The notes beneath the pieces are model-generated. The model did no database searches. It worked only from the letters and a program-made list of their open reading frames with translations, and had not been told where the DNA came from. Made by a program: the position numbers and the translations under genes. A stretch of 64,000 nt of DNA, taken from the IMG/VR virus record IMGVR_UViG_3300032224_001591, positions 1 through 64,000 of that record; one strand, 5' to 3'. Shown here piece after piece: positions 3,034-64,000 of this stretch. The number at the start of each line of letters is the position of its first letter. Positions within the stretch are counted from its first letter, which is position 1. The stretch comes from a virus.

Positions 3034-3198
3034 ATGAAAAAAATGATTATCGCAGCGATCGCAATCGCAACAATGACAGTAACAGCATGTTCTAACAACA
3101 ACACAACAGTTCCAACTACAGATAGTACAGCAGTAGATTCAACTGCAGTAAGCGTTGATAGTACAGCAACTACAGTAGATACAACCGCTACAAAATAG
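3034..3198 (+). CDS. Small lipoprotein with DST/DTT repeats (not in ORF track)
   Basis: MKKMIIAAIAIATMTVTAC-SNNNTTVPTTDSTAVDSTAVSVDSTATTVDTTATK*; signal peptide plus lipobox VTAC. Confidence 0.85.
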   Translation: MKKMIIAAIAIATMTVTACSNNNTTVPTTDSTAVDSTAVSVDSTATTVDTTATK

Positions 3199-3266: not shown

Positions 3267-3337
3267 AGTCAGATGGTGTAATGGTAGCACAACAGTTTTT
3301 GGTTCTGTTTGTTTTGGTTCGAGTCCAGGTCTGACTA
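3267..3337 (+). tRNA. tRNA-Gln(UUG)
   Basis: Acceptor AGTCAGA/TCTGACT; D arm GTGT-AATGGTA-GCAC; anticodon loop TT-TTG-GT; T loop TTCGAGT. U-U mismatch at 31:39; CCA not encoded. Confidence 0.8.
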
Positions 3338-3342
3338 CATAA

Positions 3343-3458
3343 ACAGGAGTGGCGGAATATATTATAGCAGCTACTGTAATATTACGCAGACGTGACCTAG
3401 TAAAATAGGTTGGTTAATAGGCAACTAAACCGTGTTGGTTCGAATCCAACCTCCTGTA
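3343..3458 (+). ncRNA. Atypical class-II tRNA-like RNA (Leu-like scaffold)
   Basis: Perfect acceptor ACAGGAG/CTCCTGT and T arm GTTGG-TTCGAAT-CCAAC. Hairpin inserted in the D loop, 6-nt (or 8-nt) anticodon loop, long variable arm. Confidence 0.7.
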
Positions 3459-3464
3459 CAATAT

Positions 3465-3866
3465 GGGGCTGGCACTGGTATTGACAGCAATTGAAGTAGA
3501 GAAAGATGAAGCAAGCAGGATTAGATTGGAAATCCTTAAACACCTATCAAACAATAAACGCAGTAGAATTATCTACAATGACTTTCGAAGACGTTATGTC
3601 TTTCGTTGGTGCTGATTACGCAGTAGCTGCCTAATCCCTCCCGTACACATCATGGGACTTAAAATAGAATGTGAATTAAAAGGTAGCGTTAGAGGTACTA
3701 CCTGTAAATCCATTAAATGGTAGAAGTGAACTTCCCACAGTTGAGAGTAATAATGGCAAAATAGGAACTTTATATTTTGTTTGTTTAGAAAAATAAGCTA
3801 AGCTTGTGAATGAGTTGATTTAGACTTATTGTTTGGACCTGGGTTCGAGCCCCAGCAGCTCCACCA
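3465..3866 (+). ncRNA. ssrA: tmRNA
   Basis: 5' GGGGCTG pairs with CAGCTCC-ACCA (G3:U70 Ala identity); T arm CTGGG-TTCGAGC-CCCAG; tag frame 3560-3634 ends DYAVAA*. Confidence 0.93.
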
Positions 3867-3871
3867 AAACG

Positions 3872-3901
3872 AAACATCAACGGAAACGTTGGTGTTTTTT
3901 T
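3872..3901 (+). terminator. Intrinsic terminator after tmRNA
   Basis: AAACATCAACG-GAAA-CGTTGGTGTTT followed by a T run. Confidence 0.8.
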
Positions 3902-59340: not shown

Positions 59341-62300
59341 ATGGCATTTGATAAAAATATAAAATCGAGTAGATTACTCCAAAGTAAAAGATATACTGAA
59401 GCAACCTTTGACAGTCAGGAAGCTTATACATCGGTATTGGATATAAATGCTACGGAAATTTACACCCAACAAAATTTAATCCCATCATCAAGTATTCCAT
59501 ATTCAGGTTCTAGTCAAAATAATCTTTATATTACGATTTCGGGTTCAAATATTTTACAATACTTATACAGATTACCATTAACACCTGGTCCCGCTTCAGG
59601 AAGTGTGTACCCAGTTTGGTTTGCTATTAGTTCTTCTAATACAGCATCTGTATCTAATCAAGTAATACAAGCAAATCAATTAACAAGTTTCATATCTAAC
59701 AAATATGCTGTACCAACATTAGGTCCATATGATGCTGAATCCGCATCTCCTAATACAGCATATAACGTCGTTCTTACAACAGGTGCTACTTCAGGCTCAG
59801 CTACAGTAGTATCAGTTAATGACTATACTTTTGATTATAAGCAAGGTGTTTTAGAGTTTATACAAAATGAACCTTCAACATCTTCTAAATTATATCTTAC
59901 TGCTTATCGATATGTAGGACAAACTTTAGATCAATCCCTAACATCAGGCAGTGGTGGTAGTGGATTTCCTTTTACAGGTTCTGCACAAATTACAGGTTCA
60001 TTAGGTGTTACAGGTAGTGTAAATTTTAAAACATTACCGGCTCAAGATATAGTTACTATTGTAACATACAATACAGCATCCGGACAATTAGGATATGTAA
60101 ACGTTACCTCAGGTACAAGTGGATTTGCCGGTTCTTCAGGAACCGCAGGGATATCAGGTACAAGTGGAACTACAGGTTCTTCAGGTAGTTCAGGATCTAA
60201 CGGTGCAAGTGGATCAAGCGGCGTAGCAGGTACTTCAGGTACAACTGGTTCAAGTGGATCTTCAGGAGTAGCAGGACAAAGTGGATTATCGGCAACTAGT
60301 GGAACAGCAGGTTCTACTGGTTCTAATGGTTCAAGTGGTGCTGCTGGTTCAAGTGGTTTAAGTGCATTAAGTGGAACTTCAGGTTCAACAGGTTCAAATG
60401 GATCTTCAGGAGCAGCAGGACAAAGTGGCTTAAGCGCTACATCCGGTTCTTCTGGTTCTACGGGTTCTAACGGTTCTAGTGGAGTTGCAGGTTCAAGTGG
60501 TCTTTCGGCTTTAAGCGGAACTTCAGGTTCAACGGGTTCAAATGGTTCAAGCGGTGCTGCTGGAGCTTCAGGTTTAAGTGCAACTAGTGGAACTTCAGGT
60601 TCTACTGGTTCTACGGGTTCAAATGGTGCCGCGGGTCAAAGTGGCTTAAGCGCTACTTCAGGCTCATCAGGTTCGACAGGTTCAAATGGTTCTACTGGTG
60701 TCGCAGGCACTAGTGGAAATAGTAATACAGCTGGTACTTCGGGTTCAACCGGTTCAACCGGTTCTTCAGGAAATGCTGGTCAAAGTGGTTTAAGTGCAAC
60801 TTCAGGAACAAGTGGTTCTACAGGTTCTAATGGATCTGCAGGAGTTGCAGGATTAAGTTCAACTTCAGGCTCTTCAGGCTCTTCAGGATCATCAGGTTCT
60901 TCAGGTGTAGCAGGTCAAAGTGGCTTAAGCGCTACTTCAGGTTCATCAGGTTCTACAGGATCTAGTGGTTCTTCAGGTGCGGCAGGATCGAGTGGTTTAA
61001 GTGTACTTAGTGGAACTTCAGGATCTACAGGTTCAAATGGTTCAAGCGGTGCGGATGGACAAAGTGGTTTAAGCGCTACCTCAGGCACAGCTGGATCTTC
61101 AGGCTCAACTGGTTCAAATGGTGCAGCGGGTCAAAGTGGATTATCTGCTACTTCAGGTTCATCAGGTTCATCAGGTTCAAGTGGTAGTTCAGGTGTTGCT
61201 GGTTCAAGCGGAGCTTCTGCTTTATCAGGTACATCCGGTTCTACAGGATCTAATGGTTCTTCAGGAACTGATGGAGCTAGTGGTTTATCTGCAACTAGTG
61301 GAACTTCAGGTTCTACTGGTTCTAATGGTTCGGCTGGTGTAGCAGGCCAAAGTGCAACTTCAGGTTCATCGGGTTCATCAGGTTCATCAGGATCTTCAGG
61401 TGTAGCTGGTCAAAGTGGTTTATCTGCAACTTCAGGATCTTCCGGTTCAACAGGATCAAGTGGCTCTTCAGGTGTAGCAGGTTCAAGTGGTTTAAGTGCA
61501 ACTAGTGGAACAAGTGGTTCTACAGGTTCAAATGGTAGCTCAGGTTTAGCAGGAAATAGTGGTGCTAGTGCAACATCGGGAACTTCAGGATCTACAGGAT
61601 CTACTGGTTCTAATGGTGCCGCTGGTCAAAGCGGTTTATCAGCAACTTCAGGAACTTCAGGTTCATCCGGTTCAAATGGTTCAACAGGCGTTGCTGGAAC
61701 TTCAGGTAATAGCCAAACTTCAGGTTCATCCGGTTCTTCAGGATCAAATGGATCTTCAGGTAATGCTGGAGCTTCAGGTTTAAGTAATACATCTGGATCT
61801 TCAGGTTCTTCAGGTTCAAATGGATCTTCAGGTGTAGCGGGTTCAAGCGGTTTATCTGCTTTAAGTGGAACAAGTGGTTCTACAGGTACGAACGGATCTA
61901 GCGGAGATGCAGGTTCAAATGGTTTATCTGCTTTATCAGGAACTTCAGGTTCAACTGGTTCCAATGGATCTAGTGGAGCAGCAGGTTCAAATGGCTTATC
62001 TACTTTAAGTGGAACTTCAGGTTCAACAGGATCTAATGGTTCTTCAGGAGCTGCAGGTCAAAGTGGTTTAAGCGCAACTAGCGGAACAGCAGGTTCTGCT
62101 GGTTCTACAGGTTCAAATGGTGCCGCCGGTCAAAGCGGTTTAAGTTCAACATCAGGTTCTTCAGGTACTTCAGGTTCAAACGGATCTACAGGTAATGCTG
62201 GAACTTCAGGAAATAGTAATACAGCCGGAACATCCGGTTCAACAGGTTCTACAGGTTCATCAGGTATTGCTGGACAAAGCGGTTTATCAGCAACTAGTGG

Positions 62301-64000
62301 AACTTCAGGTTCTGCTGGTACAACAGGTTCTTCGGGTGATGCTGGAAATAGTGGAATTAGCGGCACAAATGGTACATCAGGTTCATCAGGAACTTCAGGT
62401 TCAACTGGAGCTAGTGGTAATGCGGGTGCTTCAGGAGCTAGTGCATCTTCAGGATCAACCGGTTCAAATGGTAGCTCAGGAGCTGCTGGTTCAAGTGGTT
62501 TATCCTCTTTATCCGGTACTTCAGGTTCAACTGGTACTAATGGTTCTTCAGGTATTGCTGGTTTAAGTGGTGCAAGTGAAACTAGTGGTACTGCTGGTAC
62601 TTCAGGTTCAACGGGTTCAAATGGTATAGCTGGACAAAGTGGTTTAAGCGCTACTTCAGGAACATCCGGTTCAACAGGTACAAATGGTTCTACAGGTAAT
62701 GCTGGAACTTCAGGAAATAGCAATACAGCAGGTAGTTCAGGAACTTCAGGTTCTTCAGGTTCTACAGGTTCAGCAGGTGTTGCTGGACAAAGCGGTTTAA
62801 GTGCAACTTCAGGATCTTCAGGTTCAACAGGTACAAGTGGTTCTACAGGTAATGCTGGTAGTGGTGGATTTAGCAATACATCAGGTTCATCAGGTTCATC
62901 AGGTACAAGTGGTGAAACCGGTACAAGTGGTACTTCAACATATGCAGCTTCTGGAACTTCAGGTTCTGGAGGTTCATCAGGTACAAGTGGTGAATTAGGT
63001 TCAAATGGAACTTCAAATATATCAAGTACTTCAGGATCTTCAGGATCAAGCGGTACAACAGGTTCAGCAGGTGCAAATGGTCAAAGTGGTGCGAGTGCAT
63101 CTTCAGGCTCTTCAGGTTCAACTGGTTCAAATGGTAGTTCAGGAAACGCAGGTACATCAGGAAATAGCTTTACAAGTGGAACTTCAGGTTCTACAGGATC
63201 TAATGGTTCGGCAGGTATAGCAGGTTTAAGTGCTAATTCTTCAACAAGTGGAACTTCAGGTTCTAGTGGTACAAGCGGTTCAGCCGGAAATGCGGGTCAA
63301 AGTAATTCATCTTCAACTTCAGGTTCTTCTGGTTCTTCTGGTTCTTCAGGATCTGCAGGTTTAGCAGGTGCAAGTGCTGCTTCCGCAACTAGCGGAACTT
63401 CAGGTTCTAGTGGTTCTACAGGTTCAAATGGAGCTAGTGGTCAAAGTGGTTTATCAGGTACTTCAGGTTCATCAGGTTCAACTGGATCAAATGGTTCAAC
63501 TGGTGTGGCTGGTACTAGTGGTAATAGTGAAACTTCAGGAACTTCAGGTTCATCAGGTTCTACCGGTTCAGCAGGTGCGGCAGGTATAAGTGGTTTAAGC
63601 TCAACAGCCGGAACATCAGGTTCATCAGGTTCAAATGGTTCTACTGGTGTCTCAGGCACTAGTGGAAATAGTAATACAGCAGGTACTTCTGGCTCTGCTG
63701 GTACAAATGGTTCTACAGGAGATGCAGGATTAAGTGGCGCTTCCGCTACTAGTGGTACATCAGGTACAACGGGGTCTACTGGTTCAAACGGAGTAGCAGG
63801 TCAAAGTGGTTTATCATTTACTGCAGGTTCATCAGGCTCAGGAGGTTCAAACGGATCTTCAGGTGTTGCTGGTACCTCAGGTACATCTTCAGCAACTAAT
63901 TCAGGAACTTCAGGTTCAAGTGGTTCAAATGGCTCTTCAGGAAACACAGGTTCAAATGGTTTAAGTGCATTAAGCGGAACTTCAGGATCAACAGGTTCAA
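59341..64000 (+). CDS. Giant Gly/Ser/Thr-repeat virion fibre protein, 3'-truncated (>1550 aa; not in ORF track)
   Basis: ATG59341 MAFDKNIKSSRLLQSKRYT...FDYKQGVLEF...GFPFTGSAQITGSLGVTGS, then repeats; no in-frame stop seen before the window end. Confidence 0.85.
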   Translation, partial: MAFDKNIKSSRLLQSKRYTEATFDSQEAYTSVLDINATEIYTQQNLIPSSSIPYSGSSQNNLYITISGSNILQYLYRLPLTPGPASGSVYPVWFAISSSNTASVSNQVIQANQLTSFISNKYAVPTLGPYDAESASPNTAYNVVLTTGATSGSATVVSVNDYTFDYKQGVLEFIQNEPSTSSKLYLTAYRYVGQTLDQSLTSGSGGSGFPFTGSAQITGSLGVTGSVNFKTLPAQDIVTIVTYNTASGQLGYVNVTSGTSGFAGSSGTAGISGTSGTTGSSGSSGSNGASGSSGVAGTSGTTGSSGSSGVAGQSGLSATSGTAGSTGSNGSSGAAGSSGLSALSGTSGSTGSNGSSGAAGQSGLSATSGSSGSTGSNGSSGVAGSSGLSALSGTSGSTGSNGSSGAAGASGLSATSGTSGSTGSTGSNGAAGQSGLSATSGSSGSTGSNGSTGVAGTSGNSNTAGTSGSTGSTGSSGNAGQSGLSATSGTSGSTGSNGSAGVAGLSSTSGSSGSSGSSGSSGVAGQSGLSATSGSSGSTGSSGSSGAAGSSGLSVLSGTSGSTGSNGSSGADGQSGLSATSGTAGSSGSTGSNGAAGQSGLSATSGSSGSSGSSGSSGVAGSSGASALSGTSGSTGSNGSSGTDGASGLSATSGTSGSTGSNGSAGVAGQSATSGSSGSSGSSGSSGVAGQSGLSATSGSSGSTGSSGSSGVAGSSGLSATSGTSGSTGSNGSSGLAGNSGASATSGTSGSTGSTGSNGAAGQSGLSATSGTSGSSGSNGSTGVAGTSGNSQTSGSSGSSGSNGSSGNAGASGLSNTSGSSGSSGSNGSSGVAGSSGLSALSGTSGSTGTNGSSGDAGSNGLSALSGTSGSTGSNGSSGAAGSNGLSTLSGTSGSTGSNGSSGAAGQSGLSATSGTAGSAGSTGSNGAAGQSGLSSTSGSSGTSGSNGSTGNAGTSGNSNTAGTSGSTGSTGSSGIAGQSGLSATSGTSGSAGTTGSSGDAGNSGISGTNGTSGSSGTSGSTGASGNAGASGASASSGSTGSNGSSGAAGSSGLSSLSGTSGSTGTNGSSGIAGLSGASETSGTAGTSGSTGSNGIAGQSGLSATSGTSGSTGTNGSTGNAGTSGNSNTAGSSGTSGSSGSTGSAGVAGQSGLSATSGSSGSTGTSGSTGNAGSGGFSNTSGSSGSSGTSGETGTSGTSTYAASGTSGSGGSSGTSGELGSNGTSNISSTSGSSGSSGTTGSAGANGQSGASASSGSSGSTGSNGSSGNAGTSGNSFTSGTSGSTGSNGSAGIAGLSANSSTSGTSGSSGTSGSAGNAGQSNSSSTSGSSGSSGSSGSAGLAGASAASATSGTSGSSGSTGSNGASGQSGLSGTSGSSGSTGSNGSTGVAGTSGNSETSGTSGSSGSTGSAGAAGISGLSSTAGTSGSSGSNGSTGVSGTSGNSNTAGTSGSAGTNGSTGDAGLSGASATSGTSGTTGSTGSNGVAGQSGLSFTAGSSGSGGSNGSSGVAGTSGTSSATNSGTSGSSGSNGSSGNTGSNGLSALSGTSGSTGS
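60106..64000 (+). repeat. 24-aa (72-nt) periodic Gly-X-Y coding repeat
   Basis: Consensus GQS-GLS-ATS-GTS-GST-GSN-GSS-GAA, with occasional 21-aa units. Confidence 0.9.

Follow-up and report, generated by a model that had tools for sequence, protein, structure and literature searches.

A phage RNA derived from tRNA-Leu(UAA) with a hairpin in its D loop and no conserved anticodon, probably a non-decoding mimic

The window analysed here, a stretch of 64,000 nucleotides of a viral genome (IMG/VR record IMGVR_UViG_3300032224_001591, positions 1 to 64,000), contains only three genes of the tRNA type: a tRNA-Gln, a tmRNA and, between the two, a 116-nt RNA with the body of a leucine tRNA, an additional hairpin in the D loop and an abnormal anticodon loop. 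What is such an RNA, and what may a phage use it for? The locus, which reads entirely on the + strand, is organised as follows.

3034..3198, + strand: small lipoprotein ORF of 54 aa, rich in Thr, Asp and Ser; counterparts lie directly upstream of most family members
3267..3338, + strand: tRNA-Gln(UUG), 4 nt upstream of the tRNA-like RNA (ARAGORN; Rfam tRNA model, 55.7 bits)
3343..3458, + strand: 116-nt tRNA-like RNA, tRNA-Leu-derived and probably non-decoding (fold, covariance model R1, covariation)
3465..3866, + strand: phage tmRNA, 6 nt downstream of the tRNA-like RNA (Rfam tmRNA model, 75.5 bits; ARAGORN)
3871..3898, + strand: terminator-like hairpin and T run closing the unit of tRNA-Gln, tRNA-like RNA and tmRNA (consensus match only)

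Standard tools do not recognise the middle gene. ARAGORN called no tRNA there in default mode. With introns allowed or thresholds lowered, the program proposed two candidates, a tRNA-Thr(agt) containing an "intron" of 21 nt and a tRNA-Ile(aat) lacking the D arm, and both were rejected, their stems being mismatched and the perfect acceptor stem being ignored. The Rfam tRNA model (RF00005) stayed below its threshold of 29 bits, with 20.5, and was placed in a wrong register; its alignment, which starts from 3386 with a 5/7 acceptor stem, was discarded for the 7/7 stem. The Rfam YrlA / Y RNA and tmRNA models gave nothing over the element at E <= 10, and the mascRNA model matched only at 3811-3862 (17.2 bits, threshold 42.5), inside the tmRNA. 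A group I intron in a tRNA-Leu(UAA) was also considered and dismissed, the loop being shorter than normal rather than longer and an Rfam intron match being absent. [quoted passage not shown] Since standard tRNA finders and Rfam miss genes of this type, phage annotations under-count them.

The cloverleaf that RNAfold predicts for this RNA includes the extra hairpin and has an energy of -37 kcal/mol (z = -3.7); none of 200 shuffled sequences folded as well. The elements that a preliminary description of the sequence had claimed between 3343 and 3458 are all present and agree with this fold. Its parts, all on the + strand, are listed below.

3343..3349, + strand: 5' strand of the acceptor stem, ACAGGAG, 7/7 pairs with 3451-3457
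3352..3354, + strand: 5' strand of the D stem, GCG, paired with CGT at 3391-3393; RNAalifold gives the same pairing independently
3359..3382, + strand: D-loop hairpin inserted after position 16 and ahead of the G19 equivalent; 9 bp, one of them U.G, closing the loop CAGCTA
3391..3393, + strand: 3' strand of the D stem, CGT, preceded by an invariant AGA (AGAC is invariant in the family)
3395..3410, + strand: "anticodon" arm, stem 3395-3399/3406-3410 (ACCTA/TAGGT), 6-nt loop GTAAAA at 3400-3405
3412..3431, + strand: long variable arm, 7 bp with a 2-nt bulge and a GCAA cap (rather than the roughly 8 bp first described)
3434..3450, + strand: T arm, GTTGG / TTCGAAT / CCAAC, with a canonical loop
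3458, + strand: discriminator A (A73), found in 43/44 relatives

The body corresponds to a tRNA of class II and of the leucine type: the 7-bp acceptor stem and the 5-bp T stem are perfect, and the T loop is of the TTCRANY type. The D stem consists of G10.U25, C11-G24 and G12-C23. The free-energy fold chose as its 3' strand the CGC at 3385-3387, within the insert, and this choice is contradicted by the family covariation between GCG/CGY and GUG/CAY. The "anticodon" stem can be extended to 6 bp by G52.U69, and opening of the last pair would enlarge its loop to 8 nt; a loop of 7 nt is impossible in this RNA.

The likeness to canonical tRNA-Leu(UAA) covers the acceptor stem with C2-G71 and A73, U8-A14, A15-U48, the absence of an encoded CCA, the 3-bp D stem GCG/CGY with its GAAT...AGAC flanks, the long variable arm and the T arm, and the 5' part of the RNA (TGGCGGAAT...AGACGTG) matches phage tRNA-Leu(UAA) genes of the same array in relatives. 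It differs from the canonical molecule by the 24-nt D-loop hairpin, the lack of G18 and an unconserved 6-nt loop in place of CUUAAAA. A73, U8-A14, A15-U48, C2-G71, G19-C56 and U54-A58, which belong to the leucine identity set of E. coli (PMC9976931), are all present. LeuRS of E. coli relies on A73, A15-U48 and the contacts of G18/G19 with the T loop, and on neither the anticodon nor the variable arm; a tRNA-Leu devoid of its anticodon arm is still charged, and G18:U55 matters for leucylation in E. coli (PMC9976931). G18 and G19 had been described as missing from our RNA: G18 is indeed lost, whereas the G at position 19 (3386) is kept, as in every relative. After the hairpin the sequence reads C18-G19 rather than G18-G19, and since C18 faces U55 the G18:U55 contact is absent.

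Relatives were collected by pattern scans of viral and metagenome contigs (one metagenome scan and two viral scans for the set of 24). Of the distinct relatives obtained, 24 share the acceptor stem of the window's RNA, which is invariant in this set because the search pattern demanded it, and 20 more have GCTCAAG-type acceptor stems, 44 in total. A looser viral scan returned at least 42 distinct bodies of the leucine type whose D loops are expanded; among the matches listed, the canonical CTTAAAA loop is kept by a single one (L261). The sole match in a prokaryote genome collection, in a Chitinophagaceae MAG, was a coding sequence without T arm and was set aside as a chance match. We found no description of this freshwater-phage look-alike family in the literature. 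Covariance model R1 gives the window's RNA, one of its seed sequences, 108 bits; it gives independent members 63-110 bits, GCTCAAG-type members 38-53 bits and phage tRNA-Leu(UAA) genes in the arrays of relatives 38-49 bits. Membership of the family was defined by four features: a body of the leucine type, a hairpin placed after position 16 and before G19, an anticodon arm that is closed or non-canonical, and a variable arm with a GNRA cap. The window's RNA has each of them, and the architecture was seen in every constrained fold.

The stems of the family covary. Over 24 sequences, 84.6% of the cells are paired versus 69.5% in shuffles, both sides change at 24/36 pairs, and the covariation score is 0.383 versus 0.142 in shuffled alignments (0/500 shuffles reach 0.383; slid controls give 0.06-0.15). 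Over 44 sequences these values become 87.8% versus 66.2%, 29/36 pairs and 0.474 versus 0.170; the comparison with relatives that the preliminary description had called for thus brought out compensatory changes. The acceptor stem, the D stem and the T arm have 100% of their cells paired across relatives, with both-side changes at 4/7 pairs of the first and 3/5 of the last and covariation of C11-G24 with U-A in the D stem. The variable arm stem covaries too, and nearly all relatives cap it with GTAA, GAAA or GCAA. U8, A14, A15, U48 and C56 are invariant across the 44 relatives, and C2-G71 is found in 43/44. Positions 18 and 55 covary (G18/U55, n = 13; A18/G55, n = 21; C18/G55, n = 6), most relatives pairing A18 or C18 with G55, and the L174 variant reads G18-G19. 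Close copies of the window's RNA have 0/15 variable sites in the 54 core-stem bases (P = 3.4e-5), a sign of purifying selection. Position 18 is G, C or U among these copies, which suggests, from sequence comparison, a relaxed constraint on the elbow in this sub-branch.

The anticodon arm behaves differently: the body, the tertiary bases and A73 that make the RNA a tRNA mimic, as had been proposed, are conserved and covary over the 44 relatives, whereas the anticodon loop is unconserved. Close copies carry GTAAAA, GTAAGA or ATAAGA. In the nearest clade loops measure 5, 6 and 7 nt with differing sequences; one relative, L287, has the 7-nt loop TTTAATG, and other members have tetraloops (GTTA, GATG, GCAA, GTCA, GAGA, GTAA) or 8-nt loops. 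Because loop length varies between 5 and 7 nt in the nearest clade and is 4 or 8 elsewhere, with unrelated sequences, there is no conserved anticodon, nor the constant 7-nt loop with U33 of a decoding tRNA. The same loops speak against a frameshifting tRNA, one of the functions first suggested. A decoy for anticodon nucleases, another of these suggestions, is also unlikely, since in most relatives a tetraloop occupies the site that such a nuclease would bind and cut. A decoy or sponge for LeuRS, or for enzymes whose target is the body, the variable arm or the 3' end, is still a candidate role.

The D-loop hairpin lies at the same site in 44/44 relatives with unrelated sequences. It was not recovered as a consensus by MAFFT and RNAalifold, because its length and register vary between members, yet it is present in each single fold. 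Among close copies, positions 17 and 40 switch jointly from A-U to G-C (one compensatory change), the U23.G34 pair is kept in all copies and the loop is UAGCUA or UGGCCA, each self-complementary. In most members the tip is a perfect DNA palindrome (GTCGAC, ACCGGT, CCATGG, GATATC, AGTACT, GGCGCC, TGGCCA, ATGCAT), and closed forms of the hairpin end in self-complementary tetraloops (CAUG, GUAC, CGCG, GGCC, AUAU, UAUA, UGCA), unlike the variable-arm caps, which are GNRA and never palindromic. This listing rests on the loops of two well-aligned subfamilies; an axis-centred palindrome count over all hairpins is noisy because the free-energy fold misplaces some loops.

Relatives hold 10-24 tRNAs at this locus, very often including a tRNA-Leu(UAA). 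In seven loci, of which five span 6-10 kb, ARAGORN finds no tRNA and the family member stands as the sole tRNA-like gene. A tmRNA adjoins or is near the family members of L174, L182 and L194, and the lipoprotein ORF type occurs at 14 of about 19 loci having enough upstream sequence. In 10 relatives this ORF runs into a covarying hairpin of 5-6 bp (GCUAA/UUAGC, GGUUAA/UUAACC, ACUGA/UCAGU) and ends within its GUAA loop; the hairpin itself terminates 2 nt upstream of the +1 of the tRNA-like RNA. Across relatives no protein partner is conserved beside the gene except this small lipoprotein ORF, and a conserved membrane/coiled-coil ORF found downstream of relatives' members is absent from the genome studied here. 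A search of this genome for CCA-adding enzyme, Pth and SmpB genes found none. In RNA libraries, a freshwater metatranscriptome contig at depth 307 covers a whole variant of our RNA with its hairpin, a contig-level observation compatible with DNA carry-over, and a second RNA run contains, also as a contig, a different family member. No contig joined across the D-loop hairpin occurs in the RNA runs, which is weak evidence as these are contigs only; such contigs hold no end, CCA or strand information and were used solely to state presence in RNA libraries.

Covariation, invariant tertiary bases, unvaried core stems and the RNA contig argue for a selected mimic. We therefore consider it probable that the RNA is a functional, small, stable, non-decoding molecule, derived from a phage tRNA-Leu(UAA) and acting as a mimic for a host factor away from the decoding site. 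The RNA could instead be a cis-acting processing signal only, a handle for RNase P and 3'-end enzymes that frees the tmRNA and defines mRNA ends without any function in trans. Its position between the tRNA-Gln and the tmRNA, 4 and 6 nt away, would suit this role, as would the ORF-end hairpin of the 10 relatives, where cleavage by RNase P would leave the mRNA capped by a hairpin, and vertebrate mascRNA at the MALAT1 3' end provides a precedent. However, the tRNA-Gln and the tmRNA are RNase P substrates themselves, so that the RNA is redundant for cutting in the window, yet its stems are under purifying selection. RNase P requires little past the acceptor-T minihelix and the elbow, whereas A73, C2-G71, A15-U48, the D stem and the GNRA-capped variable arm are all conserved, and a cis signal leaves the conserved D-loop hairpin without a role. 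We regard an exclusively cis-acting function as possible but unlikely. That the hairpin is a feature of the DNA, a palindromic insertion element or a protein-binding palindrome, rather than a selected part of the RNA, is suggested by its mostly palindromic tips, next to variable-arm caps that never are; template switching in quasi-palindromes could also yield such hairpins without selection. The constant D-loop position over many acceptor-stem lineages and the G.U pairs of the stems, such as U23.G34, which work only in RNA of this strand, make this very improbable.

The lack of a normal anticodon could also reflect decay. A tRNA-Leu(UAA) pseudogene left from a lost tRNA array, with a D-loop insertion and a 1-nt deletion in the anticodon loop, would explain why relatives have arrays of 10-24 tRNAs where only tRNA-Gln, the tRNA-like RNA and the tmRNA remain here, why GTAAAA resembles CTTAAAA minus one base, and why G18 is gone and position 18 drifts among close copies. 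It does not fit the same architecture with strong covariation in at least 44 diverged relatives, the 0/15 variable sites in core stems, the persistence of members as lone tRNA-like genes in seven loci or the RNA-library contig at high depth. A pseudogene would moreover have called for a normal tRNA-Leu in relatives and a unique insertion without covariation, and what we found is a widespread insertion with a covarying stem; this reading is already largely refuted, and we give it only a marginal chance. A decoder with an abnormal 6- or 8-nt loop, perhaps a frameshifting one, or a precursor whose D-loop hairpin gets removed, is the least credible of all. Close copies do keep R-UAA-R-A, recalling U34-A35-A36-R37-A38 of tRNA-Leu(UAA), L287 has a 7-nt loop, and the expanded-D-loop tRNA-Leu of L261 retains a canonical one. 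Against this stand the loop lengths of 4-8 nt with an unconserved anticodon, the lack of a 7-nt loop in the window's RNA, and a genome that reads well under the standard code. The precursor proposed in the preliminary description fares no better: removal of the hairpin still leaves no anticodon, and the depth-307 contig retains it (weak evidence). We know of no splicing system for D-loop inserts in bacteria, and a search of the genome for a T4-type RNA ligase (T4 Rnl1) was empty, although the controls gave no match either.

Known RNAs place this mimic among several precedents. Small stable RNAs with tRNA-like ends occur in the tRNA clusters of lytic phages, RNA1 and RNA2 of T5 (T5s03, T5s06; annotated as "tRNA-like stable RNA with unknown functions") and rnaC and rnaD of T4 (species 1 and 2); all are devoid of a D-loop hairpin. 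T5 RNA1 is the closest annotated RNA, with a leucine-type D arm (CCGGAAU.GGUAGACGG), variable arm, T arm and acceptor stem as in our RNA; it differs by 47 extra nt in the anticodon arm and a normal D loop with GG, and R1 matches it weakly, at 20 bits, whereas T4 rnaC and rnaD do not match R1. The MALAT1 mascRNA is tRNA-shaped with no conserved anticodon, and its excision by RNase P makes the 3' end of the upstream transcript before CCA is added to mascRNA. This element and its MEN-beta counterpart may be compared with the hairpin-capped lipoprotein mRNA end in relatives; mascRNA is however eukaryotic and without long variable arm or D-loop hairpin. YrlA and other bacterial Y RNAs, which occur in phages too, are non-decoding and resemble a tRNA in its acceptor, T and D regions. 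The tRNA-like module of YrlA lies within the molecule, whose own ends make up the Ro/Rsr-binding helix, whereas our RNA has true tRNA ends. Septu and retron-Eco7 cleave class II tRNA-Tyr in its variable loop, and phage tRNA-Tyr counteracts them as a supplement or decoy; this phage RNA shares with ours a class II body and a long variable arm, and it counters a host enzyme acting off the anticodon (PMC13096335). Those tRNA-Tyr RNAs, unlike ours, genuinely decode. No nuclease targeting leucine tRNA was found in this analysis. To our knowledge, none has been described.

The non-decoding mimic may work as follows. It would be transcribed in one unit with the tRNA-Gln and the tmRNA and cut out by the host RNase P and 3'-end enzymes; since neither the gene nor the phage provides CCA, the host CCA-adding enzyme would add the tail. 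The mature RNA is predicted to retain what builds the L-shape and the 3' end, namely the acceptor stem, A73, U8-A14, the A15-U48 Levitt pair, the D stem, G19-C56 and the variable and T arms. It would be without anticodon, its 6-nt loop having no U33 geometry, and the hairpin would project from the D loop at the elbow. Such a molecule could occupy a host factor whose recognition of class II tRNA-Leu relies on the body or the 3' end. LeuRS, which in E. coli depends on A73 and the D/T hinge and not on the anticodon arm, comes first among the candidates, and a tRNA-directed defence enzyme second. Cleavage by RNase P at the 5' end of the family RNA would, in most relatives, also give a hairpin-capped 3' end to the upstream lipoprotein mRNA. 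Occupation of LeuRS or of a tRNA-directed host factor, and use of the RNA as an RNase P cutting site, are the leading ideas. More specifically, RNAs of this family might be leucylated or tightly bound by the host LeuRS and be kept off the ribosome by the closed arm and the hairpin, thus serving as carriers or sponges, and the self-complementary hairpin tips (UAGCUA, UGGCCA, GUCGAC, ACCGGU, CAUG) might form a kissing dimer, a two-headed mimic; we hold this more specific picture to be speculative and quite unlikely. The hairpin lies at what we take to be the elbow region contacted by the LeuRS C-terminal domain and by RNase P, and binding could therefore be blocked rather than permitted.

The usual accounts of phage tRNA genes, codon supply and replacement of tRNAs destroyed by defence systems, do not fit a leucine body without anticodon. 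If the carrier or sponge picture were true, RNAs of this family would be non-ribosomal leucyl carriers, or sponges for LeuRS or a tRNA-directed defence enzyme. The family also offers a natural experiment on how far the D loop and elbow can change with tertiary contacts kept, as the 18/55 covariation illustrates. The family is widespread in freshwater phages, often as the sole tRNA-like gene of the stretch sampled and often linked to a tmRNA, suggesting that these phages use the tRNA shape outside decoding; candidate uses are the titration of a synthetase or defence enzyme, the carriage of an amino acid off the ribosome, and the marking of RNase P sites that shape mRNA ends.

The viral record carrying X, the tRNA-like RNA gene studied here, is 147,248 bp long and an estimated 93% complete. 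The window, its first 64 kb, has a G+C content of ~31% and includes T4-like baseplate genes; read in the standard genetic code, it shows long open frames. X comprises 116 bases, in which an A follows the 7-bp acceptor stem, the D loop holds a 9-bp hairpin (3359-3382), the stem ACCTA/TAGGT closes a GTAAAA loop, GCAA caps the long variable arm and the T arm is canonical. The fold (-37 kcal/mol, z = -3.7; none of 200 shuffles as stable) confirmed every element drawn in the preliminary description. X matches nothing in Rfam 15; against the Rfam tRNA model it scores 20.5 bits where 29 is the threshold, and the alignment takes a wrong register. ARAGORN, whose scoring had been proposed as a check, makes no call in default mode, and the tRNA-Thr it proposes in intron mode is implausible. 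The only RNA genes that ARAGORN calls in the whole genome are a tRNA-Gln and a tmRNA, which flank X as follows:

1432-2232, DUF932 protein (110 bits), upstream of X
2275-2739, T5orf172/MUG113-domain protein, upstream of X
3034-3198, lipoprotein ORF with a lipobox and a Thr/Asp/Ser-rich tail
3267-3338, tRNA-Gln(UUG), upstream neighbour of X (ARAGORN and Rfam)
3343-3458, + strand, X
3465-3866, complete tmRNA (75.5 bits), downstream neighbour of X
3871-3898, terminator-like hairpin after the tmRNA

The tmRNA tag is long (24 residues) and ends in YAVAA. T5orf172/MUG113 domains are of the type seen in phage homing-endonuclease-like genes. At the other end of the window, G+C rises from ~0.31 to 0.46 over 60001-64000, within a very long open frame running from 59341 to the window end (>1553 aa).

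Relatives were located via two flanking protein genes, encoding the DUF932 protein and an HD-like phosphohydrolase; the DUF932 gene lies directly 5' of the tRNA array in many of them. At the locus of X, these arrays hold up to 24 tRNA genes, very often with a tRNA-Leu(UAA) of 84-91 nt. Because the 5' TGGCGGAAT of X and the AGACGTG following its insert match the TGGCGGAAT-AGGT-AGACGCG of the relatives' tRNA-Leu(UAA), X derives from tRNA-Leu(UAA), with ~29 nt replacing the G18 region. The same comparison shows CGT at 3391-3393 to be the true 3' strand of the D stem and contradicts the choice of the free-energy fold, a CGC within the insert.

Close copies of X (92-93% identity) were found in four other viral contigs, always with the tmRNA following them; a tmRNA also adjoins or is close to family members in the contigs L174, L182 and L194. 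Motif scans, two viral and one metagenomic, gave 24 distinct real members of 105-124 nt; the patterns were an anticodon-arm motif and the 5' acceptor/D-stem motif, the latter by itself or combined with the 3' acceptor strand. Another 20, with GCTCAAG-type acceptor stems, came from relatives' arrays, sought via T arms with perfect acceptor stems and via R1, a covariance model having X among its seeds. All folded members of the 24, which share the acceptor stem of X, carry a hairpin of 5-11 bp and unrelated sequence at the same D-loop site; the D-loop inserts of the other 20 were taken from the sequences. In members, the 'anticodon' arm is a helix of 4-7 bp with a tetraloop (GTTA, GATG, GCAA, GTCA, GAGA or GTAA) or an 8-nt loop, and the variable arm ends in a GTAA, GAAA or GCAA cap. 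A looser viral scan yielded at least 42 distinct bona fide leucine-type bodies with an expanded D loop and many acceptor stems, and a canonical CTTAAAA anticodon loop occurs in one of 42 among the matches listed. Since this loop counts 5 or 7 nt in the ACAAGAG-acceptor clade, the nearest to X, and tetraloops occur elsewhere, no anticodon is conserved anywhere in the family, the nearest relatives of X included. A frameshifting tRNA, one of the roles initially considered, is thus not supported, the loop being conserved neither in length nor in sequence. Moreover, seven loci (five spanning 6-10 kb) have a family member as their sole tRNA-like gene, and hence the family is not merely tRNA-array debris.

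The relatives carry other unusual genes. Their arrays contain many further tRNA-like genes of 95-149 nt, several per array and uncalled by ARAGORN; these have the acceptor stem AGTCAGG/CCTGACT with A after it, and combine a D arm of leucine type and a normal T arm with diverse inserts in place of the anticodon arm. In two contigs (L036 1853-1974; L194 upstream of 549), a 122-nt tRNA-like RNA replaces the tRNA-Gln before X; it keeps the tRNA-Gln acceptor stem AGTCAGA/TCTGACT around an unrelated interior, which looks as if exchanged between fixed ends. ARAGORN 'tRNA-???' calls in the arrays are otherwise normal tRNAs of 73-77 nt with 6-nt anticodon loops (GTCTCA, CTAAAA, TTTTCA), and the tRNA-Thr(UGU) calls, at 84-85 nt, would imply threonine tRNAs bearing a long extra arm. 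An 83-nt tRNA-Glu(CUC) and a 91-nt tRNA-Pro(CGG) are also present. Ten loci have, downstream of the member and in some cases beyond a tRNA-Met, a conserved ORF of ~105 aa in which a predicted coiled coil follows an N-terminal membrane helix; this ORF has no family match and is absent from the genome of X.

Genes in contigs of relatives
95-149 nt tRNA-like genes: L012 7125-7227; L014 4653-4758, 5089-5206; L015 6391-6531; L027 11283-11407; L036 1615-1725; L140 1184-1281; many more
'tRNA-???' genes: L030 1791-1866; L037 7265-7340; L128 693-769; L063 7044-7116
tRNA-Thr(UGU) calls: L087 1432-1516; L016 1582-1666; L019 4116-4199
~105-aa ORF: L192 1975-2316; L204 570-890; L188 8059-8376; 7 more
Lipoprotein ORF, with lipobox and Thr/Asp/Ser-rich tail: L175 8388-8549; L192 1578-1736; L204 153-329; others

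Compensatory changes among related phages, a check suggested in the preliminary description, were abundant. With 24 sequences, in an alignment fitted to the model and hence biased toward structure, 84.6% of cells pair versus 69.5% in shuffles, 24 of 36 pairs changed on both sides, and the covariation score is 0.383 versus 0.142 (0/500 shuffles reach 0.383); when the partners are shifted by 1-3 columns, the score is 0.06-0.15. With all 44 sequences, under the same bias, these values become 87.8% versus 66.2%, 29 of 36 pairs and 0.474 versus 0.170, the acceptor, D and T stems being paired in 100% of cells. RNAalifold, on its own, finds the helices of the acceptor, D, 'anticodon' and T arms and of the variable tip. 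The tertiary-contact bases U8, A14, A15, U48 and C56 occur throughout the family; A73 and C2-G71 are each present in 43 of the 44 members. The T-loop base U55 is near-universal in tRNA; most of the 44 members have U54-G55-C56 (TGCAAGY), G55 always coming with A or C at position 18. This covariation between position 55 and the base before the conserved G19 (G18/U55, n=13; A18/G55, n=21; C18/G55, n=6) suggests that the elbow still forms. In the close copies of X, none of 15 variable sites falls within the 54 core-stem bases (hypergeometric P = 3.4e-5), and the hairpin base shows a compensatory A-U to G-C change. Given the family-wide covariation and these unvaried core stems, the pseudogene reading is not supported.

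Most members have a self-complementary D-hairpin tip: GUCGAC or ACCGGU in large loops, a CAUG, GUAC, CGCG, GGCC, AUAU, UAUA or UGCA tetraloop in closed hairpins, and CAGCUA, UAGCUA or UGGCCA in copies of X. Variable-arm caps in the same RNAs are GNRA, never palindromic. The change from UAGCUA to UGGCCA preserves self-complementarity at positions unable to pair within one hairpin, which fits either dimerisation by kissing loops or a process acting on DNA, for instance quasi-palindrome correction. The stems contain G.U pairs, which argue for selection of the hairpin itself as RNA.

The RNA runs consist of contigs, so neither ends nor CCA can be read from them. In one freshwater metatranscriptome, a 396-nt contig of depth 307 (5-30 for neighbouring contigs) spans the tmRNA start and a whole variant of X of the L174 type, hairpin present; another run carries part of a different member. 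These contigs weakly support transcription of X-type RNA. No contigs joined across the hairpin were found among the runs examined, which weakly disfavours its efficient removal; with the hairpin kept in the RNA contig, the spliced precursor considered initially is not supported.

X could instead act purely in cis, as an RNase P cutting site. In 14 of ~19 loci with enough upstream sequence, the tRNA-like gene is directly preceded by the lipoprotein ORF (53-62 aa, rich in Thr/Asp/Ser), whose PHROG matches, to phage lipoproteins such as Cor, are all weak. The stop codon of this ORF falls, in 10 loci, in the GUAA loop of a covarying hairpin (5-6 bp), which ends 2 nt ahead of the RNA's first base; an RNase P cut there would leave a hairpin-capped mRNA 3' end. 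MALAT1 offers a close parallel: RNase P excises mascRNA, a tRNA-shaped RNA with no conserved anticodon, and thereby forms the 3' end of the transcript before it. A second, cis-acting role is thus plausible for the family in relatives. In the window, however, tRNA-Gln separates the lipoprotein ORF from X, and X is conserved even though, beside tRNA-Gln and tmRNA, it is redundant for cutting; we therefore rank a purely cis role second.

Full-text literature searches found no description of the family. The closest annotated RNAs are the T5 'tRNA-like stable RNAs with unknown functions', of which RNA1 has a leucine-type body whose anticodon arm carries a 47-nt insert; its R1 score is 20 bits. T4 species 1 and 2 RNAs do not match R1. 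New here are the D-loop hairpin subclass with palindromic tips, the covariation of positions 18 and 55, and the association with the lipoprotein ORF and the hairpin at its stop codon.

A CCA-adding enzyme, Pth and SmpB were not found in the phage genome, and a T4-type RNA ligase search gave no match, its controls being likewise silent. As the X gene encodes no CCA either, maturation would depend on the host for RNase P, 3'-end enzymes and a CCA-adding enzyme. E. coli LeuRS relies on A73, A15-U48 and D/T-loop contacts, including G18:U55, and is independent of the anticodon and variable arm, a tRNA-Leu without anticodon arm still being charged; C2-G71 blocks SerRS (PMC9976931). The conserved bases of the family coincide with the leucine identity set and exceed the needs of RNase P, which leads us to prefer a non-decoding tRNA-Leu mimic. 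Two caveats bear on this reading: in X, C18 replaces G18, so that the G18:U55 contact is absent, and the hairpin lies at the part of the elbow that LeuRS and RNase P contact. The tRNA mimic envisaged at the outset is supported, body and tertiary-contact bases being conserved and covarying while the anticodon is not. A nuclease targeting leucine tRNA was not found in the present analysis. The defence systems Septu and retron-Eco7 cleave class II tRNA-Tyr in its variable loop and are counteracted by phage tRNA-Tyr (PMC13096335), a precedent for a decoy role of X. Excluded from translation by its closed anticodon arm and elbow hairpin, such a mimic would engage LeuRS or another factor reading the class II body or the 3' end.
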